Part shown: in pieces, positions 23,637 through 41,200 of the stretch
Position numbering within the stretch: position 1 is the stretch's first letter
Layout of the letters: each line of letters begins with the position of its first letter
Assembly (NCBI GenBank): GCA_037045145.1
Contig: JBAOIA010000012.1
Span: 857,550-921,549 of the forward strand
Direction: 5' to 3'
Source: Bacteroidia bacterium
Lineage (GTDB): Bacteria > Bacteroidota > Bacteroidia > AKYH767-A > OLB10
Length of the DNA stretch: 64,000 bases
The notes under the pieces: model-generated
Told to the model about the DNA's origin: nothing
What the model saw: the letters and a program-made list of their open reading frames with translations, nothing else
Databases searched by the model: none
Program-made: the position numbers and the translations under genes

Positions 23637-24221
23637 TTATAAATTTTTTAAAGCTTCTCTCAGCAAAACCTCAACAGACTGAAACTCACCACCACCAGCC
23701 ATCACTTTATTTAGCTCTTTTTCAGCCACATTTCTGTTAAAGCCAAGAGTAAGCAAAGCACTTAACGCTTCTTCCTTAATTGTATTGCCTTGTGTTAATA
23801 AAACCGGTGCAGAGGCGCCTGCCTTTCCTAACTTGTCTTTAAGGTCTATGACTATGCGCTGTGCGGTTTTGTCGCCTATGCCTTTAATTTTTTTAATTAC
23901 AGCCACATTGCCTGTGGTTATGGCACTTTGCAATTCTGTAGTGCTTAGCGATGAAAGCATGACTCTGGCAGTGCCCGGACCCACACCTGATACTGAAATA
24001 AGATTACGGAAAAGCTGTCTTTCATCTTCATCGGCAAAACCAAAAAGAAGGTGTGCATCTTCTTTAATAGATAAATGGGCATAAACTTTTGCACTCTGTG
24101 CATCTTTAAGTTTTGAATAAGTTTGCAGTGAGACCTGTAGTTGATATCCTACTCCATTGGCTTCAACAACAATGTAGGTGGCAGTTGCATGGGTTATTTT
24201 TCCTGAAATATAATCGTACAT
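23637..24221 (-). CDS. ruvA: Holliday junction DNA helicase RuvA
   Basis: 'MYDYISGKITHATATYIVVEANGVGYQLQVS' is the RuvA OB-fold N-terminus; the HhH motifs 'GIGDKTAQRIV' follow. Confidence 0.9.
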   Translation of the reverse strand: MYDYISGKITHATATYIVVEANGVGYQLQVSLQTYSKLKDAQSAKVYAHLSIKEDAHLLFGFADEDERQLFRNLISVSGVGPGTARVMLSSLSTTELQSAITTGNVAVIKKIKGIGDKTAQRIVIDLKDKLGKAGASAPVLLTQGNTIKEEALSALLTLGFNRNVAEKELNKVMAGGGEFQSVEVLLREALKNL

Positions 24222-24602
24222 TATCTTTTATAATTTTTTGCTACGCTAAAACGCGACCTCAAACGTACGGAAAGTTGATGAGTTGACGAATTACTGAACT
24301 TTTGAATTGCCATGTTGAAGAACTGATGCATGTGTCAAATGAAATTATAAATACACTAATGTTTAGTGGCTTTTCTAGATACACATTATGAAATTTGGAA
24401 AGTAAAACAAAAACAACCCTATCCTATACTCCCCATACAACTTGAAGCCTTCTTTGTTTTGATGTAAATTGAAATGAAATTTTTCATGTTTTATACCATC
24501 TTCAAACAAGTCAATGAGTCATACTTTTTGATGTAAACCTATTTCAGGGCAAGGCAAAATGGGCTCAAAGGAGCGCGACTTGACAGGTTAGGTCAAATTC
24601 AA

Positions 24603-24663: not shown

Positions 24664-25116
24664 TTAGAACTCTCTGTTCCATTTAGGAAGTTGTCCATAT
24701 ATCTCAAAATACCTTTGTAAAATCACGCCCTCTACAAATGATGGTATATCCGCATTCTTCTTGTTAAAAGTTTCGTACCAATAAATGTCAAGTGCATCTA
24801 TTTTTTCATCTGTCAGTTTTTGTTTCCAAGTTTGTCTTCTTGGTCCGCCAAATTGTTTGCCGTTAATAATTCGGTCACAAATTCCACCTAATCTAACTTT
24901 TTTTGTTCCGTCCTGTTTTATTTTCCCTGAGCTGCCAATGTAAACCAAATTTACCCGTCCATTTTTAAGTTCGTAAACGCTATAAATTCCTATTCCGCTT
25001 TTAGGTGCGTTACATACTTCGCCAAGTTCTTCATTGGCAGAGAAAAAGAAATGGTCTTTGGATTTGTATTTTTCTAACTCTTCAAACATATAATTTTGAG
25101 TTGGTATGACACACAA
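24664..25116 (-). CDS. GIY-YIG nuclease-family protein (small, 150 aa)
   Basis: 'GIGIYSVYELKNGRVNLVYIGSSG' carries the GIY-(x13)-YIG spacing. It is the first gene of the accessory island next to ruvA. Confidence 0.55.
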   Translation of the reverse strand: MCVIPTQNYMFEELEKYKSKDHFFFSANEELGEVCNAPKSGIGIYSVYELKNGRVNLVYIGSSGKIKQDGTKKVRLGGICDRIINGKQFGGPRRQTWKQKLTDEKIDALDIYWYETFNKKNADIPSFVEGVILQRYFEIYGQLPKWNREF

Positions 25117-25122
25117 TTGCAG

Positions 25123-25356
25123 TCTGTGAAAAAATTAATTTCAAAAACATGTTCAAATATAGGAATAATGTAGTGTATTTAGATAATAAAAATTGATCAT
25201 AGCAATGCACACACTAACAGGAATAAATCGGGAGCAAATAACTTTTTTTAACTTTGAAAGTCAGGTAGCTCCAGACAACGAAATCCGTTTTATAGATGCT
25301 TTTGTTGAAGAGTTTATTTCTCCTGTCTTGGGCGTAAAGGAGCGCGACCTGACAGT
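25123..25356 (+). mobile_element. MITE-like IS derivative, copy 1. It retains the left end and the first roughly 55 codons of an IS5/IS1182-type transposase (DUF772-like N-terminus)
   Basis: About 90% identical to 27018..27258. It encodes 'MHTLTGINREQITFFNFESQVAPDNEIRFIDAFVEEFIS...KERDLTV*', which matches the 'NPVRfIDAFVd' transposase N-terminal motif. There is no DDE domain. Confidence 0.6.
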
Positions 25357-25380
25357 TGAAGTCAATTAGTGGCTATGGCT

Positions 25381-27017: not shown

Positions 27018-27258
27018 AGCAGTCTGTGAAAAAAAATAATTTCAAAAACATGTTCAAATATAGGGATAATGTTGTGTGTTTAGATAATAAATATTTGACG
27101 TAGCAATGTCCGCATTAACAGGAATAAATCGGGAGCGAATAACTTTTTCAAACCATGAAAGTCAGATAGCTCCAGACAATGAAATCCGTTTTATAGATGC
27201 TTTTGTAGAAGAGTTTATTTCAACTGTTAGGGGCGCAAAGGGGCGCGACCTGACGGTT
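27018..27258 (+). mobile_element. MITE-like IS derivative, copy 2 (same element as 25123..25356)
   Basis: Encodes 'MSALTGINRERITFSNHESQIAPDNEIRFIDAFVEEFIS...'. It is collinear with copy 1 from 'gcagtctgtgaaaaaa' through 'gcgcgacctgac(a/g)g'. Confidence 0.6.
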
Positions 27259-27666
27259 TGGGTATTGCCGAAGTGGCGGATTATTAGCACTAAAGTTCAA
27301 TAGAAATACTACTGTTGAACCTTGCACAATTGTTTCATAGAAGCACTTCTCCCGCCATTTTGGCAATACCGTGTTATAGCCAGTGGTTCTGTTAATCTGT
27401 CCTTGTAAACCATTGTCGTTATTGAGTTTCATTGTCTTTGTCGTGTTGGTTTGTGCGTGTTGCGGATTTTTAATATTTTCAGAAGAAGGGAGAAAAAAAT
27501 TGAATTTCTTCTTGGGTTGGGATAAGCACACTCTTTGCCAAGTTTTGGCTTGTGTGTCGGCTTCCCGAAGGGTCGGGACAGGCCGTGCGACTTGGCAATG
27601 TGTGTGCTTTTGTGCGTTGACTTTTCATTTGGCAAATGTAGTAAATGTTTTAAATTGAAACAAATG

Positions 27667-27698
27667 TTTGTTTTGTATTAAAACAATCTTTATCTTTG
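27667..27698 (+). promoter_or_regulatory. Putative promoter of the XRE-Panacea/toxin operon
   Basis: A -33 TTTG at 27667-27670 is followed after a 20-nt spacer by the -7 box TATCTTTG at 27691-27698. The ATG is at 27728. Confidence 0.35.
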
Positions 27699-27727
27699 TC
27701 CCGTTAAACAGCGAAACATAAATTGAT

Positions 27728-28531
27728 ATGAACATAAAATTGTCACAAAAGCAAATAGGTCAGAGGATAACCGAACTTCGTAAAATGAAAGGGTTGTCTC
27801 AGGAAGATTTGGCTAAAAGTGTCAAAATTTCCCGACCGTCTTTGGCTCAAATTGAGTTAGGAAACAGAAGCGTTGATATTCTTGAATTGCAAAAACTGTC
27901 ATTGGTTTTGGAGTTTTCGCTGGACGATTTTATGTCTAAGGATTTTTCTGCAAGTCAAGATGTTGATTTGAAAGAAGAAAAAAAGGCAAAGAAAGAAGAA
28001 GAACGTATTTCAGTGCCAACCTTGCAAGTCAATAAGTTTAAAAATGTCTTGTTGTATATCCTTGAACGCTGTGCAGGTAAGCCAAATGTTGGTGAAACGG
28101 TTCTTTATAAGTTGCTCTATTTCTCGGACTTCAATTATTATGAATTGTATGAGGAACATTTAACAGGTGCTAAATATCGCAAATTACCTTATGGGCCAGT
28201 TCCGCAAAAATTAGATACAATCATTGGTCAAATGATTGAAAAAGGTCAGTTGCAAAGAGTGAAAACAGAATACCATGGTTATCCTCAAACTCGCTATTTG
28301 CCTTTAGAAAAAGCTGATTTAACTCAATTAAGGGCAAGTGAAAAAGAAATCATTGACAGGGTTATAGAACAAATGAGTGATTGGTCTGCTGCTGCAATCA
28401 GCAACTATTCTCATAAGGATATGCCTTGGCTTGCTTCAAAGGAAGGAGAAGAAATAAATTATGAATTAGCTTTTTATAGAGATGCTCCTTTCTCTGTGAG
28501 AAACTATGGAGATGAAATTGAAGAACAATGA
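27728..28531 (+). CDS. HTH-XRE DNA-binding protein with a C-terminal Panacea (DUF4065, SocA-like) domain; putative antitoxin
   Basis: The N-terminal 'QIGQRITELRKMKGLSQEDLAKSVKISRPSLAQIELG' is an XRE helix-turn-helix. The C-terminal 'VLYKLLYFSDFNYYELYEEHLTGAKYRKLPYGPVP' fits the Panacea domain consensus. Confidence 0.75.
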   Translation: MNIKLSQKQIGQRITELRKMKGLSQEDLAKSVKISRPSLAQIELGNRSVDILELQKLSLVLEFSLDDFMSKDFSASQDVDLKEEKKAKKEEERISVPTLQVNKFKNVLLYILERCAGKPNVGETVLYKLLYFSDFNYYELYEEHLTGAKYRKLPYGPVPQKLDTIIGQMIEKGQLQRVKTEYHGYPQTRYLPLEKADLTQLRASEKEIIDRVIEQMSDWSAAAISNYSHKDMPWLASKEGEEINYELAFYRDAPFSVRNYGDEIEEQ

Positions 28532-28872
28532 CCTTTGACGAATTAACCGAATTTAAAAAGGATTTGAAAAACCTTTTAAAAAAATACAGAACGCTAAATG
28601 ACGATTTAGATGTGGTTAAACGAGTGCTAGAAGTTACACCCGATGAACGACCACCGTTTAGTTTTCGTATTGATAATTTGGGTTTAGAAACGTGTATCAT
28701 CAAGGTTAAGAAAATTGCTTGTAAAGCATTGAAAGGAAGAGGGGTAAATTCAGGGTTGAGATTGATTTATGCTCACTTTCCTGAAGAACAAAAAATTACC
28801 TTCATTGAATTGTATCATAAGAATGACAAGGAAAATGAAGACAAAAAAAGAATAACGGATAATTTTAAATAG
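28528..28872 (+). CDS. RelE/ParE-superfamily-like toxin, translationally coupled to the Panacea protein
   Basis: An ATGA overlap joins it to the upstream gene. 'KALKGRGVNSGLRLIYAHFPEEQKITFIELYHKNDKEN' fits the RelE/ParE core pattern 'G..R.IY......I.fi.l.H'. Confidence 0.55.
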   Translation: MTFDELTEFKKDLKNLLKKYRTLNDDLDVVKRVLEVTPDERPPFSFRIDNLGLETCIIKVKKIACKALKGRGVNSGLRLIYAHFPEEQKITFIELYHKNDKENEDKKRITDNFK

Positions 28873-28881
28873 TCAAATATC

Positions 28882-29115
28882 ATGAGTAAGAAAAATCAAC
28901 ATGTAGTCCCAAGTGGAAAAGAATGGGCGGTAAAAGGCGAAGGCAATAGCCGTAAAACTGCTATTGTGAACACACAAGCAGAAGCAATTAAAATTGCAAG
29001 AGAGATTGCCATTAACAATAAATCAGAAGTCGTTATCCATCGTTCTGACGGAACCATTCGTGATAAAGACTCTTATGGAAACGACCCTAATCCACCTAAA
29101 GACAAAAAGCATTAA
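28882..29115 (+). CDS. DUF2188-family small protein
   Basis: 'HVVPSGKEWAVKGEGNSRKTAIVNTQAEAIKIAREIAINNKSEVVIHRSDGTIRDKDSYGNDP' matches the DUF2188 consensus as I recall it. Confidence 0.65.
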   Translation: MSKKNQHVVPSGKEWAVKGEGNSRKTAIVNTQAEAIKIAREIAINNKSEVVIHRSDGTIRDKDSYGNDPNPPKDKKH

Positions 29116-29118
29116 GCG

Positions 29119-29340
29119 ATGATAGACATAAGTAAACAATCCGTAAATATTGACTGCCCTGAATGTAAACGGTCAATTTCTGTAACTATTCGGCAAGTAG
29201 CTGATGAAGCACGGATAAAATGTTCTTGCGGTCAGGAAATACAGCTGAAAGACAGTAATGGCAACAATCAAAAGGCAATCAGAGATATCAATAAGTCCTT
29301 TAGGGAACTCGAAAACACATTAAAAAAATTCGGACGATGA
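29119..29340 (+). CDS. Small zinc-ribbon protein (CPEC...C-x-CGQ), hypothetical
   Basis: It has four Cys arranged CxxC...CxC. It sits 3 nt after the DUF2188 gene and shares an ATGA overlap with the next gene. Confidence 0.4.
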   Translation: MIDISKQSVNIDCPECKRSISVTIRQVADEARIKCSCGQEIQLKDSNGNNQKAIRDINKSFRELENTLKKFGR

Positions 29341-29822
29341 AAAATTTCTACCTCTACAATAACCGCGTTGAAATTGTCAACGACAACGGAAGCATTTTCA
29401 CAATCTACTTCAACGAACATAGCGGAAAGGTTTATTACCGCTTTAAGATTGGCACTTTATCCAAAATAAAGCACCCGGGTATTTATTTGGGTGAAGATGC
29501 TTATGGCACACATTACTTTTTGCACAATCATTATCACTATGGAAAGGCACACATCACAACGGCTGCCGATTTTATTGAAGGACAAGCGATTTACATTTAC
29601 AACGAAAAGTGCAGCAATACTCCTTTGAAAGTAATTGAAATTGGGTTAAATGAAATACTCAGGGGCGAAAGCTACAAGCCCATTACTTACAACTGCCAAA
29701 CCTATACCAACACGGCTTGCCATAATCAACGCAAAAGTGCCGATGCCGAAAAATGGGTAGGTGGGCTTGTGTTGGGTTCGCTTGCTTTCCTCTTGATAAG
29801 TGCCATTGCAGGAAATAAATAA
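29337..29822 (+). CDS. LRAT/PLAAT-like (circularly permuted NlpC/P60 papain-fold) protein with a C-terminal transmembrane helix; putative phospholipase/acyltransferase
   Basis: The H-box 'KHPGIYLGEDAYGTHYFLHN' (His...His) is followed about 60 aa later by 'ITYNCQTY', a Cys in an NCEHF-like position. The C-terminal 'WVGGLVLGSLAFLLISAIAG' is a transmembrane segment. The His-before-Cys order matches the LRAT family. Confidence 0.45.
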   Translation: MKNFYLYNNRVEIVNDNGSIFTIYFNEHSGKVYYRFKIGTLSKIKHPGIYLGEDAYGTHYFLHNHYHYGKAHITTAADFIEGQAIYIYNEKCSNTPLKVIEIGLNEILRGESYKPITYNCQTYTNTACHNQRKSADAEKWVGGLVLGSLAFLLISAIAGNK

Positions 29823-29858: not shown

Positions 29859-30473
29859 ATGAACAAGAATACAATCATCATCCTAATCGTTGTCATTGTG
29901 ATTATGGGATTAGGTCTTTGGAAGGTGAATGAAACCTTACAAGAAGAAAGAAAAAAGCGAAAGGAAGCCGAACAAGCCAATGTGCGGTTGATTATGGACA
30001 GCATACGCAGGCAAAAAGGTTTTACCGAAGCGGTGAAACTGGAACTGGATAATCTGGCCAAACATTTTGAAGACATTGAACCGAATGTAACGGCTAAAAT
30101 TGCTAAAGCCATTCAGTTGATAGAAATAAACCAAACCGAAAATGCCATTGAAGATTTGGCCGTAATCATGGAAAACCTGCTGGAAGATTATTACAAAAAA
30201 GACAACGGCTTTGTTGCCTTCTTGAAAAACCGCAGGGCGGACCTACATCATTTGCTTACCTATTGCAATAAGGACAAAAAAATAAGCGATGTAGAGTTGC
30301 AGTTTTTTCTTGGCGTAAAAACCATACGCAACAAAGAAGACCACACACTAAATCAAAAGCTGGACGATTACCTGAACGCTACCGGTTTAATTGTAGGCAT
30401 CGGTGCCATTGTAAAAATTGCTTCGTTTTGGAAACAGAAAAAGCAATTGGAACTTATCCCAGTAAGGGCGTAA
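29859..30473 (+). CDS. Membrane-anchored protein with an N-terminal TM helix, a coiled coil and a C-terminal alpha-helical domain carrying an Rx4H (HEPN/DUF4145-like) motif
   Basis: N-terminal TM 'IIILIVVIVIMGLGLW'; a KEAE-rich coiled coil; C-terminal 'FLGVKTIRNKEDHTLNQ', which matches Rx4-6H. Confidence 0.4.
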   Translation: MNKNTIIILIVVIVIMGLGLWKVNETLQEERKKRKEAEQANVRLIMDSIRRQKGFTEAVKLELDNLAKHFEDIEPNVTAKIAKAIQLIEINQTENAIEDLAVIMENLLEDYYKKDNGFVAFLKNRRADLHHLLTYCNKDKKISDVELQFFLGVKTIRNKEDHTLNQKLDDYLNATGLIVGIGAIVKIASFWKQKKQLELIPVRA

Positions 30474-30478
30474 TACAT

Positions 30479-31861
30479 TTACGCTTTTACCTTTTTGTAT
30501 TTTACTTTTTTCTCCGCAGCTATTTTCATGGGCTTTTCTTCAATGGAATATGCTTTGGTTTTTTTGCCGCCTTTTTTCCCCTGAGCTTGCCGAAGGGTTT
30601 CCTTTTCTGCTTTAATCTTTTCCAATAAAACACTGGCAGGTTCATCTTCCGGATTTTGTGCAACCAACTCGCCACGGAATGCTTTTGCCAAAATGCTTTG
30701 GGGAAGTTTATCCAGCATGGCTTTGGCTTTGGTGTAGCGGGCTTCTAACTTATCGGCAAATGCAAAGAGTTGTTCTACCTTTCGGACGATTTCTTTTTGT
30801 TCTACGACTTCAGGAAGCGGGATCGATAGTGTTTTTAGTTGGGTAGTGTTTATCCTAGGTCTTGTTGCACCGTGAATATTCAAAACCAATTGTTCAAATG
30901 AACGCATTGAAGTCAATACAAAAAGCAGAAAGAACTTGTCTATTTTATTTTCATCTGGTCGAATACAAAAGCAATCAGCTTTTGCAATTGCTTTAGTTGG
31001 TAAATAAGGTAAAATGCAAGCCCTTATTTCTTCAGAAATAAAAGAAGAGAAAATTATATCACCTTCGCCAACTGTATGACGCAATAAAGACTGATATTTT
31101 TCTTTTGTTATATAAGTTTCCTTTTCGTGAACAAAATATAGATGTTCAATATTTTCAAGACGAATAACTCGAATACCTTTATCAGTGTAATCAGCAGTTT
31201 TTAAATTTGAACCAAATGGGCCATCAAAAATTCCACCTTTCGGAATTACGGAGTTTAATTCAACTTCGTCCCATTCTTTAAATCCATTCTTCTTCTTCCA
31301 TTCCTCCGTCAACTTACCACTTACAGCAGCAGCCAACACACTTTGCCGAAATCGTTTTAAAATGATTGGTATTTTTTCTAACCGTTGTTTGTTGCTTTCT
31401 ACTTTTTGCATTACCGCATCTAGCTTGGCTACTATGCGGTGCTGCTCGTCAAGGGGTGGAAGGGGGATATGTATTTCTTTTTGTGCCTTTCCCGTTTGAA
31501 CAAACGGTTGGCCTGAACCCCCTTTTGGCCAAAAATTTTCATTATTCAATAAATAGAACAGGTAGTCAACATGTTTATCGTCATTTGCAAATGCTCTAAT
31601 TACCGAAGTATTAGCAATAGTTGTCCATTGCCCATTTGCTCTAAAACATTTACCACATCTTGCTCCAACAGCACTCAATATGATAGCTTCACCTTCTTCC
31701 TCAAAAAAATCAACTTTGCCATCAGGGCCAGTTCCACTAAATGCAATATATTTCCCATCTTCTTTGTAAACCTTTTTAGTTAAAGAAGAATTACCAGAAG
31801 TAATATTAACTACTTCACCTAATAACGGGAATTCCCAACCTTGTGGTAAACTATTCTCCAT
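30479..31861 (-). CDS. hsdS: Type I restriction-modification specificity subunit
   Basis: There are two target-recognition domains, each preceded by the conserved 'LP.GWE...LGE' opening, and a central coiled-coil repeat. Its start overlaps the stop of hsdM. Confidence 0.85.
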   Translation of the reverse strand: MENSLPQGWEFPLLGEVVNITSGNSSLTKKVYKEDGKYIAFSGTGPDGKVDFFEEEGEAIILSAVGARCGKCFRANGQWTTIANTSVIRAFANDDKHVDYLFYLLNNENFWPKGGSGQPFVQTGKAQKEIHIPLPPLDEQHRIVAKLDAVMQKVESNKQRLEKIPIILKRFRQSVLAAAVSGKLTEEWKKKNGFKEWDEVELNSVIPKGGIFDGPFGSNLKTADYTDKGIRVIRLENIEHLYFVHEKETYITKEKYQSLLRHTVGEGDIIFSSFISEEIRACILPYLPTKAIAKADCFCIRPDENKIDKFFLLFVLTSMRSFEQLVLNIHGATRPRINTTQLKTLSIPLPEVVEQKEIVRKVEQLFAFADKLEARYTKAKAMLDKLPQSILAKAFRGELVAQNPEDEPASVLLEKIKAEKETLRQAQGKKGGKKTKAYSIEEKPMKIAAEKKVKYKKVKA

Positions 31862-33257
31862 TGAATTCCAGTAGGGTTAATATTTCTTTTAAATCGTCCA
31901 CCACAGCTTCCAGTTCTGCAATGGCTTCTGTGGCAAGGTCGTTGGGTTCGGGTAAGCTGTCGGCATCTTCTATGCTTTCGTCTCTCAGCCAGGTAATGTC
32001 GAGTTTGTAATTCCGTTTTGTAATTTCCTCTATTGTAAAACAACGGAAACGCCCTGTTTCGCCTTCGTCTTTTCGTTTGCTTTTTCCGTTAGGGTCGGTG
32101 CCGTAGCATTTTTCAAAATCGGTAAAATGCTTGTCGGTTAGCGGACGGTCTTTTTTGGTAATGCCTTCAATGTTGCTGCGGTTGTCGTAAATCCAAACTT
32201 TTTCGGTGGGCAAACCTTTCTGAAAGAAAATCACATTGGCTTTTACACCCTGTGCGTAGGGAGTAAAGGTTCCTCTGGGCAAACGCACAATGGTGTGCAG
32301 GTTGCAATCCTGCATCAGTATTTCAAATACTTCACCTGCTTTGTCTTCAAACAACACATTGTCGGGCAACACTATGGCAGCACGTCCACCCGGTTTCAGA
32401 GTGCTCATAATGTGCTGCACAAAATTCAACTGCTTGTTGCTGGTTTCTACCGTAAAATCATCCCGTTCGGGAACCTGGTTTGCTCCTTTTGTTCCAAAGG
32501 GTGGATTGGCCAACACCACATCAAACCTGGTGCTGTCGGGTGTGTTGTAAATGGTATCGCCCAGTTTTATTTTCGGGGTAACGCCATGCAAATACATATT
32601 CATCAAAGCCAGTCGCCTTGGCCTTGCCACCAACTCCTGTCCGTAATAGGTTTTTTCACGAATGCGTTTTACATCTTCACGGGGCAGCGCACCTTTGCTT
32701 TCCTGCATCAGCCATTCATAAGCCGATACTAAGAAACCACCTGTGCCGCAACTGGGGTCGGAAATGGTAAATGAACTTTTGCCTCTCGGGTCGGGCTTCA
32801 TTAACCGCACCATGCTTTGTATCAAAGGTCGTGGTGTAAAGTATTGCCCTGCACCCTTTTTGCCTTCGCTGGCGGCTTTTTCCAGCAGTCCCTCAAAGGC
32901 AGCACCTTTTACATCCACATCCATGCTCGTCCATTCGTCTTCTTCAATCAGGTTCAGCAGTTTTTTCAAACTCACCGGGTTGTTGAAGCGATTTTGTGCT
33001 TGTGTAAATATTTCACCTAACAGACCTTGCTCTTTGGCCAGTTCACGCAGGGTGTCGGTGTAATGGTCCATCAAATCGCCACCGCTTAATTTGGTCAGCG
33101 ATTGCCAGTTGTATTTTTTATGCAGATGCACTTCTTTTTCATCTGCCATTTTCAGGAAGAGAAGAAACGACAGTTGCTCTATGTAATCGTTATAATCAAT
33201 GCCCTCGTGGCGAAGCGTATGGCAAAAGCCCCACAATTTATTTACTACATCACTCAT
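31851..33257 (-). CDS. hsdM: Type I restriction-modification N6-adenine DNA methyltransferase subunit
   Basis: HsdM_N-type N-terminus; the motif I region 'DPSCGTGGFL' and motif IV 'NPPFG' are present. Confidence 0.9.
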   Translation of the reverse strand: MSDVVNKLWGFCHTLRHEGIDYNDYIEQLSFLLFLKMADEKEVHLHKKYNWQSLTKLSGGDLMDHYTDTLRELAKEQGLLGEIFTQAQNRFNNPVSLKKLLNLIEEDEWTSMDVDVKGAAFEGLLEKAASEGKKGAGQYFTPRPLIQSMVRLMKPDPRGKSSFTISDPSCGTGGFLVSAYEWLMQESKGALPREDVKRIREKTYYGQELVARPRRLALMNMYLHGVTPKIKLGDTIYNTPDSTRFDVVLANPPFGTKGANQVPERDDFTVETSNKQLNFVQHIMSTLKPGGRAAIVLPDNVLFEDKAGEVFEILMQDCNLHTIVRLPRGTFTPYAQGVKANVIFFQKGLPTEKVWIYDNRSNIEGITKKDRPLTDKHFTDFEKCYGTDPNGKSKRKDEGETGRFRCFTIEEITKRNYKLDITWLRDESIEDADSLPEPNDLATEAIAELEAVVDDLKEILTLLEFNGE

Positions 33258-33258
33258 A

Positions 33259-33945
33259 TTATGCTGCTATTGCTAAGTTTATTTCTTGAATCAATTTGGT
33301 GTAATCGTCTGCAAATACTTTTTTGAATTTGTTCAGTCCGCCTCTGTCAGCAAAAACGGGTAATTCCTGCAAATCTTCTTCGTCTAAAGTCATGTTTTGT
33401 TTTAGATGTTCTTTGATGTATTCCATCCATTTTTGTTGTTCGTCATTCAGCCTTTTTCCGGTTGTTACTTTCTGAATGGCTTGGTTCACCCGTTCTTCGG
33501 GGCTTAACAAAGGTTCGGTTTCTTTGGCTGCATGCTTTACCATGCTGATGATGTCAACGGCATCTTTCTGATAAACGATTTTGTGTGCCTTTTGCAAACT
33601 GGCTTCATCATAATTGCTCTCTTTTAGTTTTTGCCTTAGTTCGTTCAAAGCATTGGTGTTCCAATCTTTTGGCTTGTTTAACAAAATGCTGATGGCGGCA
33701 ATTTCATTTTCTTTTCGTTTTACAAATTCAGAAAATGCCAGTAAATAATCCATTGGTTGTAAACCGTATCTTCCTTCTGCTTCAAACAACACCATCGAAC
33801 TCACTTCGTCCTGCACCTCATACCCAACCAGAAAAACCTTTTTGGCTCTTTCGTAGTCCACCAATAGCTTTTGAAACTGCTCGTTTCGGAGCAATTCCAT
33901 CACACTGGTGAAGCTTTCAAATATTTCGGGTAACGATTTTGCCAT
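33259..33945 (-). CDS. HsdR C-terminal-domain-like protein (EcoEI_R_C/DUF3387-type helical domain) encoded as a separate ORF
   Basis: It starts in a TAATG overlap with the stop of the helicase ORF. The sizes add up: 683 aa plus 228 aa is about the length of a full HsdR. The domain identity is inferred from position and predicted helical composition, not from a recognised motif. Confidence 0.45.
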   Translation of the reverse strand: MAKSLPEIFESFTSVMELLRNEQFQKLLVDYERAKKVFLVGYEVQDEVSSMVLFEAEGRYGLQPMDYLLAFSEFVKRKENEIAAISILLNKPKDWNTNALNELRQKLKESNYDEASLQKAHKIVYQKDAVDIISMVKHAAKETEPLLSPEERVNQAIQKVTTGKRLNDEQQKWMEYIKEHLKQNMTLDEEDLQELPVFADRGGLNKFKKVFADDYTKLIQEINLAIAA

Positions 33946-35996
33946 TACTTATACTTATCAAAAAAATTAGAAATCTGCTCGGCAAATTTTCCCATATCGC
34001 CATCAGGAATATAGGTTTTGAATTTGTCACGGGCATTTCCACTCATATCTTTTTCAATTCTATGCAGTCGTTTTGCCAAACGCTTGGCATTGGCTCTGCG
34101 GTCTTCGTTGTTGTATATTTTTTCTATCAGTTCTTTAATGGTTATGGTATCGGTTCCCGGTGGGTCAATTTTAAAGTTGTAGCTGGCATCTTTAAAATAC
34201 TTTATCAATGTTCCGTTGAAACAATCAAAGATTACAAAGTGAGTTTTGCCGATGTCATCACATTTTCGTGTTCCTCTGCCCAACATTTGTTCCCAAAGAA
34301 TACGGCTTTTAACAGGTCGGAGAAAAACAATGTATTCCAGAGAAGGAATGTCAACTCCTGTGCTTAACATATCAACGGTAACCACAATTTTCGGATTGGG
34401 TCTGTTTCTAAACTCTTTAATTTTTTTCAAAGGTCTGTCCACCGTTGGGCTGCCTGTAATCTTTGCCACAAAATCGTCACCCTGATTAAAAACCTGTTTG
34501 CAAATGCTCACCAAACGGTCAGCATGTGAAATCATGGGTATGTCGTTGGATGCAAAAATCAAGGTTTTTGGAAAACGCCCTGTGCGTTGTTCCCACTCGT
34601 CAGTATATTTTTTTAGTTCTTCAATTATTTTTTGGTTGGTGTCGGGGGCTGTAATTTTTTCTTCAATCTCTGTTGAAGTAAATTCCCGCTCATCTTCCAA
34701 TTGGTCAATTTGTTCTCTGCCTGTTTCAGTGTCAATCATCCCCACTTGTTCGCCTTCTTTCAAAAAAGCTCCGTTCATCAACACTTCCGAATTGATAGCC
34801 ACAGCATCATAATCTACCAAAAACCCTTCGTCAATGGCTTGTTGCAATGGATAATTGAAAATAGGTTTTCCAAAATAGGCAACCGTATGTGATGCAGGCG
34901 TTGCAGTTAAACCAACTTTAACGGCATCAAAATGATTTAAAACATTTCGCCAAACATTCGTTTCTTTTGAAGTGTAACCTCTGTGGCACTCGTCAGCAAT
35001 AATCAAATCGAAAGCATGCGATGGAATTGAAAGCGTTTCTGCATCATCGTCTCCACTTCCTGCCTGCTCGGCAGACAGGTCTTCATCCTCACCAAATGCA
35101 CCCGCTTTGCCGTAAAGGTTAATTGCCATTCGCTGGATGGTGCAGACATAAAGAAAGGTTTTTGTTCCATCAGGATTTGTCAAATAGGAATTAGGCAACA
35201 CAGTTGGGTCGTATGCTTCCCCTTCAAAATCTTCTTTCTTAAAGCGTTGTGAGTATAATTCGTATTCGTCTTTAAACTTGATATTTCTCGGTGTGTCAAA
35301 TGATGCAAAAGCAGTAACGGCTTGTGCGGCTAACGACTTTCTATCAACCAAGAACAAAATGCGTTTAGCATAACCGGAAGCCAACATTCGGTAAACAAGA
35401 TTAACTGTGGTGAAAGTTTTTCCTGTTCCTGTTGCCATTGCTAAAAGCATCAGGCGTTTGCCGTCTTCCAAATTATTTTCAAAAGCTTGTATAGCTTCTT
35501 TTTGGTAAGGCCTAAGTCCGGGAGTATTAATGGGCCTGACTTTCAGCCATTGCAAAGCCGTATCTCGTTTTGCGTTAAATAAAGTTTCCATCGCTTCTGG
35601 CTTATGAAAACTGTAAATCTGTCGGCTTAAGTTTTTGTTGTCTCTTACATCTAAATAGTAAATCAATTCACCATTAGAAGAATACAAAAATGGAACTCGA
35701 TATTGATTCCATTCACCAATTGTCTTATCTGCACCTTTTGAATATCGCTTGGCTTGTTCCAACACATTTGCTGCACCAACCTCCAATTTCTTTGCTTCAA
35801 CCACACCTAATAAATTTCCATTTACAACCAAAGCATAGTCCGCAGGTCCGTTTTTTGTTTGCAATTCCTCAATTGCGTGATTTGTCAAAATAGACAAGTC
35901 CATTCCCTCAGAGTAAGGAATGATATGCCAACCGGCAGCTATTAGCTGCTGGTCAATTCTTTTCTTTCTTGTTATTTTCTCTGATTCGTATGTCAT
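33945..35996 (-). CDS. hsdR: Type I restriction enzyme R subunit (N-terminal nuclease plus SF2 helicase core)
   Basis: The HSDR_N-type nuclease N-terminus comes first. The helicase motifs follow: 'MATGTGKT' (motif I), 'DECHRG' (motif II) and 'QMLGRGTR' (motif VI). Confidence 0.85.
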   Translation of the reverse strand: MTYESEKITRKKRIDQQLIAAGWHIIPYSEGMDLSILTNHAIEELQTKNGPADYALVVNGNLLGVVEAKKLEVGAANVLEQAKRYSKGADKTIGEWNQYRVPFLYSSNGELIYYLDVRDNKNLSRQIYSFHKPEAMETLFNAKRDTALQWLKVRPINTPGLRPYQKEAIQAFENNLEDGKRLMLLAMATGTGKTFTTVNLVYRMLASGYAKRILFLVDRKSLAAQAVTAFASFDTPRNIKFKDEYELYSQRFKKEDFEGEAYDPTVLPNSYLTNPDGTKTFLYVCTIQRMAINLYGKAGAFGEDEDLSAEQAGSGDDDAETLSIPSHAFDLIIADECHRGYTSKETNVWRNVLNHFDAVKVGLTATPASHTVAYFGKPIFNYPLQQAIDEGFLVDYDAVAINSEVLMNGAFLKEGEQVGMIDTETGREQIDQLEDEREFTSTEIEEKITAPDTNQKIIEELKKYTDEWEQRTGRFPKTLIFASNDIPMISHADRLVSICKQVFNQGDDFVAKITGSPTVDRPLKKIKEFRNRPNPKIVVTVDMLSTGVDIPSLEYIVFLRPVKSRILWEQMLGRGTRKCDDIGKTHFVIFDCFNGTLIKYFKDASYNFKIDPPGTDTITIKELIEKIYNNEDRRANAKRLAKRLHRIEKDMSGNARDKFKTYIPDGDMGKFAEQISNFFDKYK

Positions 35997-36459: not shown

Positions 36460-38391
36460 CTAGAATAACTTATTTATCTCAGCAAACATTTTCTCAAAGT
36501 TGTCTAAGGTTTTTGGTTTGAAGTAGCTTTTGTCAACTCCAAGTTGGTTGAGTTTATTAGCTGGTCTGTAATGATTAAACCTTTCTTTACCAATTACTTT
36601 ATTTATCTGCTTTAATATAGTGTCAATAGTATTGTCAAGGTCTGCAACTTTGATAGTTGGATGTTCTTTATCGAATGCAGCATTGAAGATTTTCAAATAT
36701 TCTTCCTTATCGAAAAGGTCTTCAATGTCAGCTGTTGTTTTACCGTTGTTAGCGAACTCATTAAAGAATCTAATATTTTTCTCTTTAATAATTTTGTGCA
36801 TAATCAGGTCTGCAACTTTTTGCTTTCCTTTTTGGTCGGTGAATGTGTCAAGTAAACAAGCAACATTTAATTTAGAGCCACGAAGCAATGAAATAAAAGT
36901 TGAAACTTTGTCTAAACCTCCAACAGGAACAATTGTGATGTTGTCTTTAAGGAAAGTTCTTTTTTCTGATTCAAGTATGCTTGATATTAAAGTCAAGTAA
37001 ATTAAATCAGCCGGACCTTCAACAAGCAAATTGTTTTTAGATACAAATAAATTTTGTGCTATGTCGTAGCCCAATGCAGCTTGTAATGGGAATAATGTGT
37101 TAGGGTCTTTCTCTTGTATGGAATCGGAAATTATCGTTCCTTCCTCTGTCTCGAAACAAGTGCGAACTCGGTCAAGATGTTCTGTTTCTACCATAAAGGG
37201 AGAGTGTGTCGTATAGATTATTTGATACTTTTTAGAAAGATCGTCAAAGAAGCGAAGTAAATCAGCTTGTGCAGAGGCGTGTAGATTTAAACCTGGTTCA
37301 TCCAATAGAAGAACATAATCGGAGTTTTTATCAGCTTGAATTTTGCTGAACCAAATTATGAAGGAGAAAAACCAATTAAATCCTTTGCTCCGTCTATCTA
37401 AAGGCAGAGTTATTTTATGTCGTTGACTTTTAACTCGTATATCGAGTATTTTTTCTGGCTGTCCTTGTGGGTTAGTTGTATTCTGAATTTTGAATTCAAT
37501 GTCAAGATTCTTATTGGTTGACCAATATTTGAAAATTTCATTAGTTATTTTATTGGAAGATGCTTCCAATAGAGCGATATATTTTTCGTATTCCTGTTCG
37601 GTTGCATTTAATATTTCTTCAGGTTTTATTCTTGCTAATTCAAATAACGCCTTTGAAGTTTTATCTTTTTCGTTTGTAGGTGGTTCATTTTTCAGTTTAT
37701 TGATGTTTATTTTTCCTCTTAATGGGTAATAATCATCAAAATACCAAAACTTAGGCATTTTGGCTTTTATCCAATTTTTAGCAATATAGGATTCTAACAA
37801 ATTTGTCCAAGATGCCGTGTTGTAGCCTCCGTCAATAATTCTTTTTATTTCTGTTTTGAACGCTGCTAAATCATCATCCCCCTCTACGGCAACAATGTTT
37901 GCAATGTCTTTCAATGATGCGGTTTTCTTTATGGCTTCTTTGGTTGCATCTGATAGAGCATATTCAGAAACTTGAAGCTCTAAAAACTTTTTCTGATTAG
38001 CAGAAAGTCCTCCAAATGTGCTTGTTTTAGATTTATAATGACAGGTATAAGTAAACTCTTTTGTTGTAAAAACGCCTTTACCAAATTCTTCTTCAATCTC
38101 CTTTAACAAGTCAGTCGAAATTTCATACTTGCATTGAATAATATCGCAGTCATCTTCGCTATGTTGAAAATCAATTAACTCATTTCTTGGGTAGTCTTGA
38201 GTTATGTCGAAAACAAAGTCTGGGTCTGCGGTAAAATAGTTTGTCTTTGCAATGGCAGTTAGAAAAGAAGTTTTTCCTGCTTCATTCATTCCAACAATAG
38301 TCGTAATTGAAGGGTCAATATTTACGGTTTGTGATTTCTGAATACTTTTGTATTTGTCAATCGTAACTTGTATTAATTTTATCATTGTCAT
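36460..38391 (-). CDS. OLD-family (Overcoming Lysogenization Defect) ATP-dependent nuclease: ABC-type ATPase fused to a C-terminal TOPRIM domain
   Basis: Walker A 'GMNEAGKTS'; ABC signature and Walker B 'LLLDEPGLNLH'; the C-terminal 'LLVEGPADLIYL...VPVGGLDK' are TOPRIM motifs. No UvrD-like partner is adjacent. Confidence 0.7.
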   Translation of the reverse strand: MTMIKLIQVTIDKYKSIQKSQTVNIDPSITTIVGMNEAGKTSFLTAIAKTNYFTADPDFVFDITQDYPRNELIDFQHSEDDCDIIQCKYEISTDLLKEIEEEFGKGVFTTKEFTYTCHYKSKTSTFGGLSANQKKFLELQVSEYALSDATKEAIKKTASLKDIANIVAVEGDDDLAAFKTEIKRIIDGGYNTASWTNLLESYIAKNWIKAKMPKFWYFDDYYPLRGKININKLKNEPPTNEKDKTSKALFELARIKPEEILNATEQEYEKYIALLEASSNKITNEIFKYWSTNKNLDIEFKIQNTTNPQGQPEKILDIRVKSQRHKITLPLDRRSKGFNWFFSFIIWFSKIQADKNSDYVLLLDEPGLNLHASAQADLLRFFDDLSKKYQIIYTTHSPFMVETEHLDRVRTCFETEEGTIISDSIQEKDPNTLFPLQAALGYDIAQNLFVSKNNLLVEGPADLIYLTLISSILESEKRTFLKDNITIVPVGGLDKVSTFISLLRGSKLNVACLLDTFTDQKGKQKVADLIMHKIIKEKNIRFFNEFANNGKTTADIEDLFDKEEYLKIFNAAFDKEHPTIKVADLDNTIDTILKQINKVIGKERFNHYRPANKLNQLGVDKSYFKPKTLDNFEKMFAEINKLF

Positions 38392-38938: not shown

Positions 38939-41200
38939 CTACTGTTGCTTCCTGCTTTGTGCATCAATAACAGCAATGGTAACCATGTTCACAATGTCGC
39001 GGACACTGCTGCCAAGTTGAAGAATGTGTACGGGTTTTTTCATGCCCAGAAGCACAGGGCCAATGGCTTCGGCTGCTTCCATAGATTGCAGAAGTTTGTA
39101 TGCAATGTTTCCGGCATCGAGGTTTGGAAAGATGAGTGTGTTGACACCACCATTGATGAGTTCGCAGAAGGGATAACTGTCGTGCAGCATCTGCATGTTA
39201 AGTGCAAAGTTTGCCTGCATTTCGCCATCTACTATCATGCCCGGAAATTTGTCGTGCATTATTTCTACAGCCTTTCTGATGCGTACTGCAGAGGGGTCGT
39301 TTGACGTGCCGAAGTTTGAGAAAGACAACAGTGCAATGCGTGGCTTGATGTTGAATTGCTGCACAGCTTTGGCGGTGAGCAGCGTTATTTCAACCAAGTC
39401 TTCTGATGTGGGGTTTACGTTGATGGTGGTATCTGCAAAAAACAAGGGTCCTTTTTTTGTCATCATGATATACATGCCTGCAACGCGGGTACCATGTTCC
39501 TGCACACCAATGATTCGTAAAGCAGGACGTATGGTGTCGGCATAGTTGCGTGTTAGTCCTGAGATGAGTGCATCGGCCTGTCCGGTTTCTACCATCATAG
39601 CACCGTAGTAGTTTCTTTCGCGCATAACTTTTTTGGCTTCGTAAACAGAGAAGCCTCTGCGTTTTGCTTTTTCGAAAAAGAGTTCGCCAAAGGTGTTGAG
39701 GTGTTCTGTGTCAACACGTGGGTCAACAATAGGAATGTCTGTTATGTCAATGTGGTTTTCTGTAACGATTTGTTTTATACGCTCGCGGTTACCGAGCAGA
39801 ATGGGTCGAGCAATGCCTTCTTCTTTGACCTGTTGTGCTGCTTTTAGAATTTTGTAGTTGTCGGCTTCGGCAAAGACTATTCGCTGCGGGTTTTGTTTGG
39901 CGCGTGTTACGATGGCACGAATGAGTTTGTTGTCGAGGTTGAGTCGTTTTTTGAGGTCTTCTACATAGTGTTCCCAGTTGTTGATGCTAACCTGTGCCAC
40001 CCCTGTTTCCATAGCGGCACGAGCCACAGCAGGTGCAACGGTGTAGATTAATCGTGGGTCGAGTGGCTTGGGGATGATGTATTCGGGGCCGTATTGCAGG
40101 TTTTTTGTGTTGTAGGCAAGGTTAACCATTTCCGGAACGGGCTGCCGTGCCAACTGCGCAATGGCGTGCACCGCTGCCAGTTTCATCTCTTCGTTGATTT
40201 TTGTTGCACGAACATCTAATGCGCCTCTGAAAATAAATGGAAAACCAATAACGTTGTTTACCTGATTGGGAAAATCGCTGCGGCCTGTTGCCATGATTAC
40301 ATCTTCGCGTGCACTCTTGGCATCAGGATAAGTAATCTCGGGGTTGGGATTGGCCATAGCAAAAACAACAGGTTTTTCCGCCATAGATTTGAGCATGGCG
40401 GCACTCAGAATATTTCCTTTGCTGAGACCGATAAATACATCGGCACCATGCATGGCTTCTTCCAGTGTGTTAATGTTTCTGTCAGTAGCAAATTCGCTTT
40501 TGTTGACGTCTAAACCTTCCCGGTCTTTTCTGATTACACCTGTGCTGTCGAGCATGGTGATGTTTTTTTTCTGTGCACCAAGCGAAACAAAAAGTTTGGT
40601 ACAGGAGATTGCCGATGCTCCTGCTCCATTGACAACAATTCTTACGAGGTCAATTTTTTTGTTTACAATATCCAATGCATTGATGAGTGCTGCACCGCTA
40701 ATGATGGCCGTGCCATGCTGATCGTCATGCATGACAGGAATGTTGAGCTCGTTTTTCAGGCGGCTTTCAATTTCAAAACATTCGGGTGCTTTAATGTCTT
40801 CGAGGTTGATGCCACCAAAAGTTGGTGAAATAGCTTTTACAGTATTTACAAATTCATCAACGTTGGTTTGATTGATTTCAATATCGAATACATCAATGTC
40901 TGCAAAAATTTTAAACAGAAGTCCTTTGCCTTCCATGACAGGTTTTGATGCTTCGGGGCCTATGTTGCCAAGGCCAAGGACAGCAGTGCCGTTAGAGATT
41001 ACGGCAACAAGATTTCCTTTGGCAGTGTATTTATAGACGTTGTCAATGTTTTTTTCAATCTCGAGGCAGGGCTCTGCAACACCGGGCGAATAGGCTAATG
41101 ATAAATCGCGTTGTGAGCTGTATGGTTTACTGGGTATTACTTCTATTTTGCCCGGACGACCGGATGCATGATAATCGAGTGCTTCTTTATTAACTGGCAT
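38939..41200 (-). CDS. maeB: NADP-dependent malic enzyme (malic enzyme plus C-terminal phosphotransacetylase-like domain)
   Basis: N-terminus '[13 protein letters not shown]' and the NAD(P)-binding 'GAGASAIS' are present. The C-terminal half is PTA-like. Confidence 0.9.

Follow-up and report, generated by a model that had tools for sequence, protein, structure and literature searches.

The interval 27728–28872 on the forward strand of a 64,000-nucleotide stretch of Bacteroidia DNA (the window) is a real two-gene toxin-antitoxin (TA) cassette, in which a Panacea-domain antitoxin gene, panA, is followed by a gene for a small RelE/HigB2-type toxin, panT. As a whole, it is best explained as an autonomous type II PanAT cassette of approximately 1.26 kb, a reading that we consider probable. 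PanAT-type cassettes are fairly ordinary: the type has already been catalogued computationally and is common across Bacteroidota. Toxicity, mRNA cleavage, and neutralization are the functions that we infer for the pair.

Both open reading frames (ORFs) described in an earlier note on this DNA were recovered, panA at 27728–28531 (+ strand, 267 amino acids) and panT at 28528–28872 (+ strand, 114 amino acids), as was the overlap between them: at the junction, cAATGAcc, the panT ATG overlaps the last codon and TGA of panA by 4 nt. The peptides that it quoted can be placed in the proteins: LYKLLYFSDF at residue 126 and KLPYGPVP at residue 152 of PanA, and GLRLIYAHFPEEQKITFIELYHKND at residue 76 of the toxin. 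In PanA, an XRE helix-turn-helix (HTH) and a Panacea domain are separated by a charged linker, and a conserved tail forms the C terminus; the HTH-Panacea fusion that had been proposed for it holds, with both domains above the curated Pfam thresholds. The XRE-type HTH (residues 16–68, 27773–27931) matched PF01381 HTH_3 at E 2.2e-12 and 47 bits (cut-off 23). The HMM search suggested for the Panacea/DUF4065 domain (residues 126–234, 28103–28429) returned SocA_Panacea, PF13274, at E 1.9e-22 and 80.8 bits against 25.7, covering profile positions 1–112 of 113. A Lys/Glu-rich linker occupies residues 70–97 (27935–28018).

Beyond the Pfam Panacea match, PanA carries a conserved C-terminal tail (residues 235–267, 28430–28528, + strand; ...YELAFYRDAPFSVRNYGDE...). 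In alignments, tail residues Y245, E246, F249, Y250, R251, S256, R258, and Y260 were invariant, even with partners that were 37–46% identical, and the tail is a candidate toxin-binding element. Because the AlphaFold model of PanA, a monomer predicted from a shallow alignment, was mediocre (pLDDT 67.5), we make no structural statement about its interface; pLDDT was 83–88 over the HTH region and below 50 for residues 77–97 and 229–267. When a PanA profile was compared with the PDB, no solved Panacea structure was found by sequence and HTH proteins alone were matched, all through the HTH region only: the restriction-modification (R-M) controllers C.AhdI (E 2.3e-6) and C.BclI, together with SinR and PezA.

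The pairing of the two genes, which the earlier note had read as a TA system, is kept in close and distant relatives. A related-locus search, run with a single protein as query, returned 80 Bacteroidota loci, and PanA and PanT were adjacent in all 80; the 4-nt overlap was present at 63 of the 76 junctions that could be scored. Recurrence of the pair and of the overlap at these frequencies places the pairing far beyond chance. Among more distant toxin homologues (36–40% identity), the four in informative loci (P0188, P0225, P0254, and P0170) were each encoded directly 3' of a Panacea gene. The Panacea partners of distant toxin homologues are standalone proteins without the linker that align from about residue 97 of PanA onward, with 38–46% identity to PanA 97–267. 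Since these partners lack the equivalent of residues 1–96, the neutralizing part of PanA is inferred to lie within approximately residues 97–267; the Panacea domain and conserved tail, not the HTH, are the likely neutralizer, and the HTH is likely to be a regulatory add-on.

DNA similarity among the loci was limited to about 27613–28872, with a sharp end at the toxin stop codon (28872), and what the genomes have in common is just the cassette. A search of the 80 loci for conserved neighbors such as an integrase or recombinase found unrelated flanks, the largest neighbor cluster occurring in 4 of 80 loci. By eye, the members of that cluster resemble the nucleotidyltransferase of another TA pair. 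A tblastn search of plasmid and phage collections with the toxin gave no match and thus lends no support to its being carried by known plasmids or phages; neither tRNA genes nor Rfam families were found in the island around the pair, and no integration-site marker was identified from them. The family is abundant: clustering at 90% identity gives more than 4,300 clusters, and members occur in at least 430 species genomes.

The surroundings of the pair bear on what it is for. The island in the window also encodes a type I R-M system (HsdS, HsdM, and a split HsdR) and an OLD-family AAA_15/TOPRIM protein, the neighboring DUF2188 protein matches the PADLOC candidate PDC-S16 (E 1e-36), and one distant homologue pair adjoins GmrSD_N, HEPN, and methylase genes. 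This company would fit a cassette that serves primarily in abortive-infection phage defense, with Panacea sensing a phage trigger and freeing the toxin, rather than in addiction or stress responses, and Ernits et al. (2023) hypothesized a sensory role for Panacea and linked TA networks to defense systems. Such a role would leave the parts list unchanged and differ from the main explanation in biological function. The flanks of the 80 loci, however, are mostly unrelated, include housekeeping genes, and are not consistently defense islands, and the only PADLOC matches of the two genes are one to the generic HTH and a weak, DarG-like one to Panacea. We regard a primary role in phage defense as somewhat unlikely and retain the type II PanAT cassette as the better description.

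The earlier note had also assigned a RelE/ParE-like core to PanT. The fold stood, through a structure model and a family profile, but the direct HMM check did not: no Pfam RelE/ParE model scored above threshold against the protein (PF06296 came at E 0.059, 14 bits against 27), nor did any other Pfam, NCBIfam, or PADLOC model. The one direct HMM match was to phrog_5869, a family of unknown function (E 3.8e-6). The relatives of PanT behaved similarly. When 78 diverse homologues were compared with Pfam individually, none passed, no family was common to more than one member, and at most one member each weakly touched PF06296 or PF05016. Because PanT alone falls below every RelE/ParE HMM threshold, the RelE-like assignment required the family profile and the structure model, and the call is less strong than the first reading implied.

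A profile built from the 78 homologues matched Vibrio cholerae HigB-2 in the PDB (E 5.7e-5, 26 bits), over the C-terminal half alone (profile positions 64–114). The AlphaFold model of PanT was of high confidence (pLDDT 95.7, pTM 0.87) and has a beta-alpha-alpha-beta4-alpha topology, with strands at residues 2–5, 45–47, 56–60, 77–84, and 89–97 and helices at 7–17, 23–36, and 106–113. In a Foldseek search of the PDB, all of the top 50 matches belonged to the RelE/ParE superfamily (HigB2, RelE, YoeB, YafQ, HigB, HP0892, and ParE-like toxins). The best was HigB2 (8a0x_D, E 9.8e-4), and target-normalized TM scores were 0.5–0.71, the highest for 5ja9. A search of viral folds (BFVD) with the toxin gave nothing significant (best E 0.047). 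PanT is assigned at the superfamily level, with HigB-2 as its nearest relative, and no named Pfam family is supported by sequence.

Three putative active-site residues were predicted by profile alignment between 28759 and 28821 on the + strand: R78 (28759–28761), Y96 (28813–28815), and K98 (28819–28821). These align with Arg64, Tyr82, and Lys84 of V. cholerae HigB2 (VcHigB2), three of its four validated active-site residues, at which substitution by alanine lowers activity 350-, 1200-, and 3000-fold, respectively (PMC5416850). Among the 78 diverse homologues, R78 is conserved in 73, Y96 in 72 (the remaining 6 have Phe), and K98 in 69. The counterpart of the fourth residue, Arg51, is Ala64 in the window toxin and Arg in 21 of the 78 homologues. 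Other basic residues lie on or just after strand beta2, namely K59 (70/78), K/R61 (66/78), and K/R66 (60/78).

The shared fold leaves a second function to be weighed, that of a ParE-like gyrase poison in place of a ribosome-dependent mRNase. RelE and ParE have one fold, the ParE-like PfiT (9w3a) and a YoeB/ParE toxin (6n90) are among the fold matches, one family member weakly matches PF05016 ParE_toxin (E 0.0025), and ParE is among the PanT domains of Kurata et al. (PMC8832971). Against this, the only significant sequence-profile matches are to the mRNase HigB-2, the best fold matches are the mRNases HigB2, RelE, HP0892, YafQ, and YoeB, and the R/Y/K triad and the Gly-rich basic beta2–beta3 loop, which contribute to HigB2 activity, are conserved. 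A gyrase poison is therefore very unlikely in our estimate, and within the superfamily PanT appears to belong with the HigB-2/RelE mRNases rather than with ParE.

Purifying selection on both genes is strong, with dN/dS of about 0.07 (median 0.070 for panA and 0.063 for panT). It is highly improbable that the pair is non-functional as a TA system, comprising an XRE regulator and a domesticated, non-toxic RelE-fold protein, or that it is part of a larger operon that includes the three genes downstream (encoding the DUF2188 protein, a Zn-ribbon protein, and a 161-amino-acid protein). Several PanA-associated candidates, some of them mRNase-like toxins, were non-toxic in E. coli (Kurata et al., SI table, PMC8832971). 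Five genes follow one another closely on the + strand between 27728 and 29822, the trio accompanies the pair in 5–7 loci, and in one locus (L003) DNA similarity runs on to 29756. In more than 90% of loci, however, the trio is absent and similarity mostly ends at the toxin stop codon, and the catalytic-type residues of PanT are among those kept under purifying selection. The toxin domain also forms the C terminus of a 3334-amino-acid filamentous-hemagglutinin-like protein; this is the position at which polymorphic toxins carry their warhead, which supports a toxin role for the domain and argues against a domesticated, non-toxic protein.

The type II PanAT cassette also travels with its own control region, defined by blastn and by an alignment of 23 loci (27613–27727, + strand). 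Similarity to the 80 related loci starts at 27610–27660 (median 27645), with an exact boundary at 27613 in 10 loci; in the 23-locus alignment, conserved blocks fall within 27613–27727 and sequences further upstream are unrelated. Two operator-like 17-bp palindromes lie in this region: P1, TGTTTTAAATTGAAACA (TGTT-N9-AACA; 27646–27662, 82 nt 5' of the ATG), and P2, TGTTTTGTATTAAAACA (27669–27685, 59 nt 5' of the ATG), with their centers 23 bp apart. In the 23-locus alignment, the half-sites are conserved and the spacer is variable, and the half-sites of P2 hold invariant columns (G of TTG, A and C of AAACA). At least two TGTT-N9-AACA sites, with up to one mismatch, were present in 61 of 75 loci compared with 0.5% of background 130-nt windows.

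P2 is placed between two promoter elements, a −33-like TTTG (27667–27670) and a Bacteroidetes-type −7 box, TAnnTTTG (TATCTTTG; 27691–27698, + strand). TAnnTTTG is the established Bacteroides promoter consensus. Of 75 loci, 67 have the motif approximately 37 nt 5' of the ATG, and its columns were invariant or nearly so in the 23-locus alignment. It was used in place of a sigma-70 promoter scan, which was uninformative (15 sites against 10.8 expected) and is unsuited to Bacteroidota. Judged from their position and conservation, the two palindromes overlapping this promoter are likely autorepression operators.

These features are consistent with the following scheme. As a HigB-2-type toxin of the RelE superfamily, PanT would most likely enter the ribosomal A site and cleave translated mRNA by means of R78, Y96, K98, and the basic residues of strand beta2. 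PanA probably binds PanT and inactivates it directly through the Panacea domain and C-terminal tail (residues ~97–267). The N-terminal XRE HTH, which may be a clade-specific addition, probably dimerizes on the two palindromes and represses the operon, and the 4-nt overlap suggests translational coupling that would keep synthesis of PanA ahead of that of PanT. If PanA were lost or inactivated, because it is proteolysed, because its expression is blocked, or because Panacea senses a trigger, PanT would then be freed and would arrest translation. That PanA might instead act as a SocA-like (type VI) proteolytic adaptor, delivering the toxin to a protease without inhibiting it by binding, is the least probable reading of all: the Panacea domain takes its name from SocA, and NCBI calls a protein 100% identical to PanA (P0304) a [quoted passage not shown], but the NCBIfam SocA equivalog, NF047745, scored 12.4 bits on PanA against a cut-off of 190, the toxin is RelE-like and not SocB-like, and the PanATs that have been tested form complexes and act as type II systems (Kurata et al., PMC8832971).

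PanATs, the preferred class for this pair, are the textbook example of an antitoxin domain that is "hyperpromiscuous", and the cassette changes no concept. The portions of the PanAT literature available to us contained no experimentally validated PanT of the RelE/HigB-2 type. The toxin family is highly conserved and without a Pfam model, and its RefSeq label is still "hypothetical protein"; the practical value of the cassette lies in improved annotation of Bacteroidota and in a tractable candidate for Panacea neutralization of a RelE-fold toxin. A family that occurs with and without the HTH fusion is, moreover, a natural experiment on whether Panacea neutralizes directly or senses, a question posed by Ernits et al. 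(2023). A more ambitious picture would have the 1.26-kb unit exchanged among at least seven Bacteroidota orders without a linked recombinase, acting as a Panacea-sensed abortive-infection switch, with its toxin domain recruited also as the C-terminal warhead of a giant secreted toxin of the filamentous-hemagglutinin type. We think this quite unlikely; if true, it would place one toxin family in three settings, TA addiction, phage defense, and interbacterial competition.

Comparison with known systems places the parts of the cassette in several different families. SocAB, the type VI TA system of Caulobacter crescentus, has in SocA the same Panacea fold family (PF13274) as PanA; its partner is SocB, in contrast to the RelE-like partner here, and nothing in the window pair indicates a ClpXP-adaptor mechanism. 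Among solved structures, the R-M C proteins C.AhdI and C.BclI come closest to the PanA HTH (E 2e-6 to 3e-6). The operators of C proteins are pairs of adjacent palindromes, a layout that resembles P1/P2. The C proteins themselves are standalone R-M operon regulators of 70–80 amino acids, whereas the PanA HTH is fused to Panacea and encoded at the 5' end of its own TA operon, and the likeness is limited to the HTH class.

In the type II modules RelBE, YefM-YoeB, and DinJ-YafQ, the antitoxin gene comes first and overlaps the toxin gene, the toxin is a RelE-fold mRNase, and the antitoxin binds DNA and autoregulates, the last two properties being predictions for the window cassette. JGI annotations name close homologues of the toxin RelE or YafQ, and the Pfam RelE, YoeB, and YafQ models left the window toxin undetected. 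PanA, unlike its toxin, has no kinship with this group: it is unrelated to RelB, YefM, and DinJ, which have RHH or Phd folds and a disordered C-terminal toxin-binding helix.

For the toxin, the top match by both sequence profile and fold is VcHigB2, known with its antitoxin HigA2 (PDB: 5ja8, 5ja9, 5jaa, 8a0x). The two toxins share a Gly-rich basic beta2–beta3 loop, a C-terminal helix after beta4, and the R/Y/K counterparts, but only about 20% of residues are identical, and PanT has Ala at the position of Arg51. In higBA, the toxin gene comes first and HigA2 consists of a disordered N-terminal segment and a C-terminal HTH, whereas here the antitoxin comes first and has the order HTH-linker-Panacea. 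Filing the pair as higBA in the strict sense was rejected on account of its upstream HTH-Panacea antitoxin, despite the HigB-2-like toxin.

The closest likeness is to the PanATs themselves, in which antitoxins with a Panacea domain are coupled to a wide range of unrelated toxins (Kurata et al., 2022, PNAS, PMC8832971), in agreement with what the earlier note had said of the domain. The window pair resembles them in having PF13274 above threshold and a conserved two-gene adjacency with one partner family, as used in the FlaGs/NetFlax criterion. According to the same study, 343 PanAs carry an N-terminal HTH, and RelE/ParE-like PanTs were predicted. Operators, a comparison of standalone with HTH-fused forms, and the spread of a cassette were not found in the portion of that article available to us, and the family RefSeq accessions WP_152268657.1 and WP_243360625.1 showed no overlap with the entries seen in its Dataset S1. 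One PanT cluster in Dataset S1, pT15/T14, has an HTH-PanA, the antitoxin gene first, and a −4 gap; its hosts are Bacteroidetes (Paludibacter, Hydrotalea, and Cytophagaceae), and all of its entries are marked "notest" (PMC8832971). The T14 toxin is annotated as a "hypothetical protein", and the best HHpred match of its representative is HigB-2 (99.73%). The window pair has every one of these descriptive features given for T14, to which it is likened by description rather than by sequence.

The panA antitoxin ORF (27728..28531, + strand, 267 aa) and the toxin ORF (28528..28872, + strand, 114 aa) lie where the earlier note had placed them, and the 4-nt stop/start overlap was seen at cAATGAcc, in which the toxin ATG shares 4 nt with the last codon and TGA stop of panA. 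Of the peptides quoted in that note, two were located in PanA (residues 126 and 152) and one in the toxin (residue 76). Its Panacea assignment was borne out by HMM search: PanA residues 126–234 match SocA_Panacea (Pfam PF13274) at 80.8 bits (gathering score, 25.7), with nearly the whole profile covered, and residues 16–68 likewise match the XRE-type HTH_3 domain (Pfam, E = 2.2e-12). A 100%-identical protein bears the NCBI name [quoted passage not shown]; the NCBIfam SocA equivalog scored far under threshold on PanA (12.4 bits versus 190), so PanA carries the domain without being a SocA ortholog. A PanA profile search of the PDB returned HTH proteins only, led by C.AhdI and C.BclI, which are controller proteins of R-M systems; it recovered no solved structure of a Panacea domain. 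The AlphaFold model of PanA is mediocre (pLDDT 67.5; shallow alignment), with good confidence in the HTH and across most of the Panacea core and pLDDT below 50 in the Lys/Glu-rich linker (77–97), residues 136–158, and the tail (229–267).

When a single genome was scanned for each species, at least 430 genomes had a toxin relative. The best 80 loci (75%–98% amino acid identity) came from Chitinophagales, Cytophagales, Bacteroidales, Flavobacteriales, Sphingobacteriales, Saprospirales, and Marinilabiliales, and all 80 have a PanA homolog (69%–97% identity) directly upstream of the toxin. The 4-nt overlap is retained in 63 of 76 scorable junctions. Median dN/dS was 0.070 (PanA) and 0.063 (toxin), and synonymous sites were close to saturation. 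DNA similarity among related loci starts at 27610–27660 and breaks off abruptly where the toxin gene stops (28872); flanking genes are essentially unrelated among the 80 loci, the biggest neighbor cluster being 4/80, and no toxin copies were found on known plasmids or phages, including the GenBank phage collection. The transferred or inherited unit is thus the two genes plus ~70–115 bp of upstream DNA. One locus, L046 (toxin 87% and PanA 81% identical), is from a MAG labeled "Clostridia bacterium" and represents either a mis-binned contig or cross-phylum transfer; the other loci with a readable phylum are all Bacteroidota, and L050 is labeled only "uncultured bacterium."

Upstream of panA are two 17-bp palindromes with conserved half-sites and variable spacers, P1 (TGTTTTAAATTGAAACA, 27646–27662) and P2 (TGTTTTGTATTAAAACA, 27669–27685), with centers 23 bp apart. 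Two or more TGTT-N9-AACA sites were present in 61 of 75 loci compared with 0.5% of background windows, and TAnnTTTG was found in 67 of 75. A Bacteroidetes-type −7 box, TATCTTTG (27691–27698), occurs with TTTG at 27667–27670. P2 sits between the −33-like and −7-like elements, where repressor sites are classically found. We infer autorepression by dimeric PanA at these putative operators; HTH-operator autoregulation is likely.

No curated model was passed by the toxin alone: PF06296 (RelE) reached E = 0.059, its 14 bits falling short of the cut-off (27), and there was no match in NCBIfam or PADLOC. A phmmer search of the PDB yielded HigB-2 at E = 0.12. With 4,355 clusters at 90% identity and 584 representatives at 50%, this is a large family, and close homologs are annotated as RelE or YafQ endonucleases by JGI and as "hypothetical protein" by RefSeq. 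A profile of 78 full-length homologs (33%–60% identity) matched V. cholerae HigB-2 at E = 5.7e-5, in the C-terminal half only, and a Pfam scan of the 78 members gave no family covering them. The toxin AlphaFold model (pLDDT 95.7, pTM 0.87) runs from one strand through two helices and four further strands to a C-terminal helix. The top 50 PDB matches in a fold search were all RelE/ParE-superfamily toxins (HigB2, archaeal and E. coli RelE, HP0892, YoeB, YafQ, HigB, and the ParE-like PfiT), with HigB2 the best (target-normalized TM up to 0.71). The proposed RelE/ParE fold is thus confirmed, but the curated HMM check failed and membership of a named Pfam family was not confirmed. The toxin also matches the phage family phrog_5869.

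VcHigB2 activity requires Arg51, Arg64, Tyr82, and Lys84, and a basic Gly-rich β2-β3 loop adds to it (Hadzi et al., PMC5416850). Profile alignment equates Arg64, Tyr82, and Lys84 with toxin R78, Y96, and K98, and of the 78 diverse homologs, 73 keep R78, 72 keep Y96 (6 more have Phe), and 69 keep K98; G72 and G76, the glycines of the loop, both occur in 72. The Arg51 position corresponds to Ala64 (Arg in 21/78), near which lie conserved basic residues K59, K/R61, and K/R66, on or just after β2. The three conserved catalytic counterparts and the loop glycines make a ribosome-dependent mRNase of the HigB-2/RelE type more likely than a gyrase poison of the ParE type, which supports refining the generic RelE/ParE assignment to a HigB-2/RelE-like one.

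Four toxin homologs (36%–40% identity) each come right after a Panacea gene, either overlapping its end or separated from it by 43 nt, and these partners (171–223 aa) have no HTH. Three of them (L081, L082, and L084) align to PanA ~97–267 at 38%–46% identity, with an invariant C-terminal motif (Y245, E246, F249, Y250, R251, S256, R258, and Y260) outside the Pfam Panacea match. This pairing of distant toxins with HTH-less Panacea proteins indicates that toxin and Panacea co-diverged as a pair and that the HTH and linker were added in the clade of the PanA described here. Standalone Panacea is a direct neutralizer, a role that additional domains may assume (Ernits et al., 2023); by this logic, the neutralizing determinant is most likely Panacea plus the tail, with the HTH for regulation. 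The L084/L085 pair (toxin P0170; standalone Panacea, 43-nt gap) is in a prophage-like or mobile setting beside a primase-polymerase/DUF3987 protein, a protein weakly matching HTH_Tnp_1_2 (PF13022), and an SDH-family protease, and the L082/L083 pair (toxin P0254) adjoins GmrSD_N, HEPN_RiboL-PSP, and DNA-methylase genes, a defense-island setting. Another homolog, P0235 (L088 1753–11757; 3,334 aa), has a weak filamentous-hemagglutinin repeat match and a full-length toxin domain at its extreme C terminus (residues 3217–3329, 38% identity, E = 6e-25), resembling a CdiA-type polymorphic toxin; its contig stops 77 nt past the gene, placing any immunity gene beyond view.

The cassette lies in a ~14.7-kb island between a putative ruvA (23637–24221, named from reading the ORF translation) and a malic-enzyme gene (38939–41200). 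On the − strand, the island carries type I R-M genes for HsdS (30479–31861), HsdM (31851–33257), and a split HsdR (EcoEI_R_C, 33259–33945; ResIII/HSDR_N/helicase, 33945–35996), and an OLD-family AAA_15 plus TOPRIM protein (36460–38391); it also holds a DUF2188 protein matching PADLOC candidate PDC-S16. This content would fit a defense role for the cassette but is no proof of it, since the flanks are unrelated at most of the other loci. The toxin gene is followed by a compact run of three genes (28882–29822) for the DUF2188 protein (PF09954, E = 4e-25; PDC-S16, E = 1e-36; phrog_3220), a 73-aa protein resembling a CxxC zinc ribbon, and a 161-aa protein that weakly matches PPPDE peptidase and has a hydrophobic C-terminal stretch that by eye looks like a membrane anchor. 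The trio accompanies the cassette in only 5–7 of 80 loci, with DNA similarity up to 29756 there (L003), and seems to form a small module of its own. Immediately upstream of the cassette, two beta-propeller (PQQ_2-like) genes are flanked by a 229-nt direct repeat (25129–25357 and 27030–27258, 87% identity; 37-nt partial copy at 24560–24596), which may be a mobile-element remnant or repeat family. Short ORFs in the repeats (58 and 65 aa) share "INRE.ITF...ES..APDNEIRFIDAFVEEFIS" and have no Pfam match. ORF 29859–30473 (204 aa) has a hydrophobic N-terminal segment by eye and weak scattered matches only; ORF 24664–25116 (150 aa) matches phrog_20139 (E = 2.5e-4) and nothing in Pfam.

The observation in the earlier note is confirmed, and its interpretation as a PanAT-type pair is supported. 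A higBA module in the strict sense was excluded because gene order and antitoxin differ, and SocAB was rejected on the equivalog score. PanAT systems were defined by Kurata et al. (2022; PMC8832971); 343 PanAs have an N-terminal HTH, partners include ParE and other toxin folds, and validated RNase-type PanTs are MazF-like. Its predicted PanT cluster T14 (pT15, Dataset S1) has a representative with HigB-2 as top HHpred match (99.73%) and includes pairs in which an HTH-PanA precedes a "hypothetical protein" at a −4 gap; these come from Paludibacter, Hydrotalea, and one isolate of Cytophagaceae, and every one is marked "notest." Compared by description only, our pair agrees with T14 in every respect; an accession look-up of the toxin family in the available Dataset S1 did not establish identity. 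The pair has very probably been catalogued in silico already. We regard it as a new, abundant, and well-conserved member of the PanAT systems, with predicted activities.
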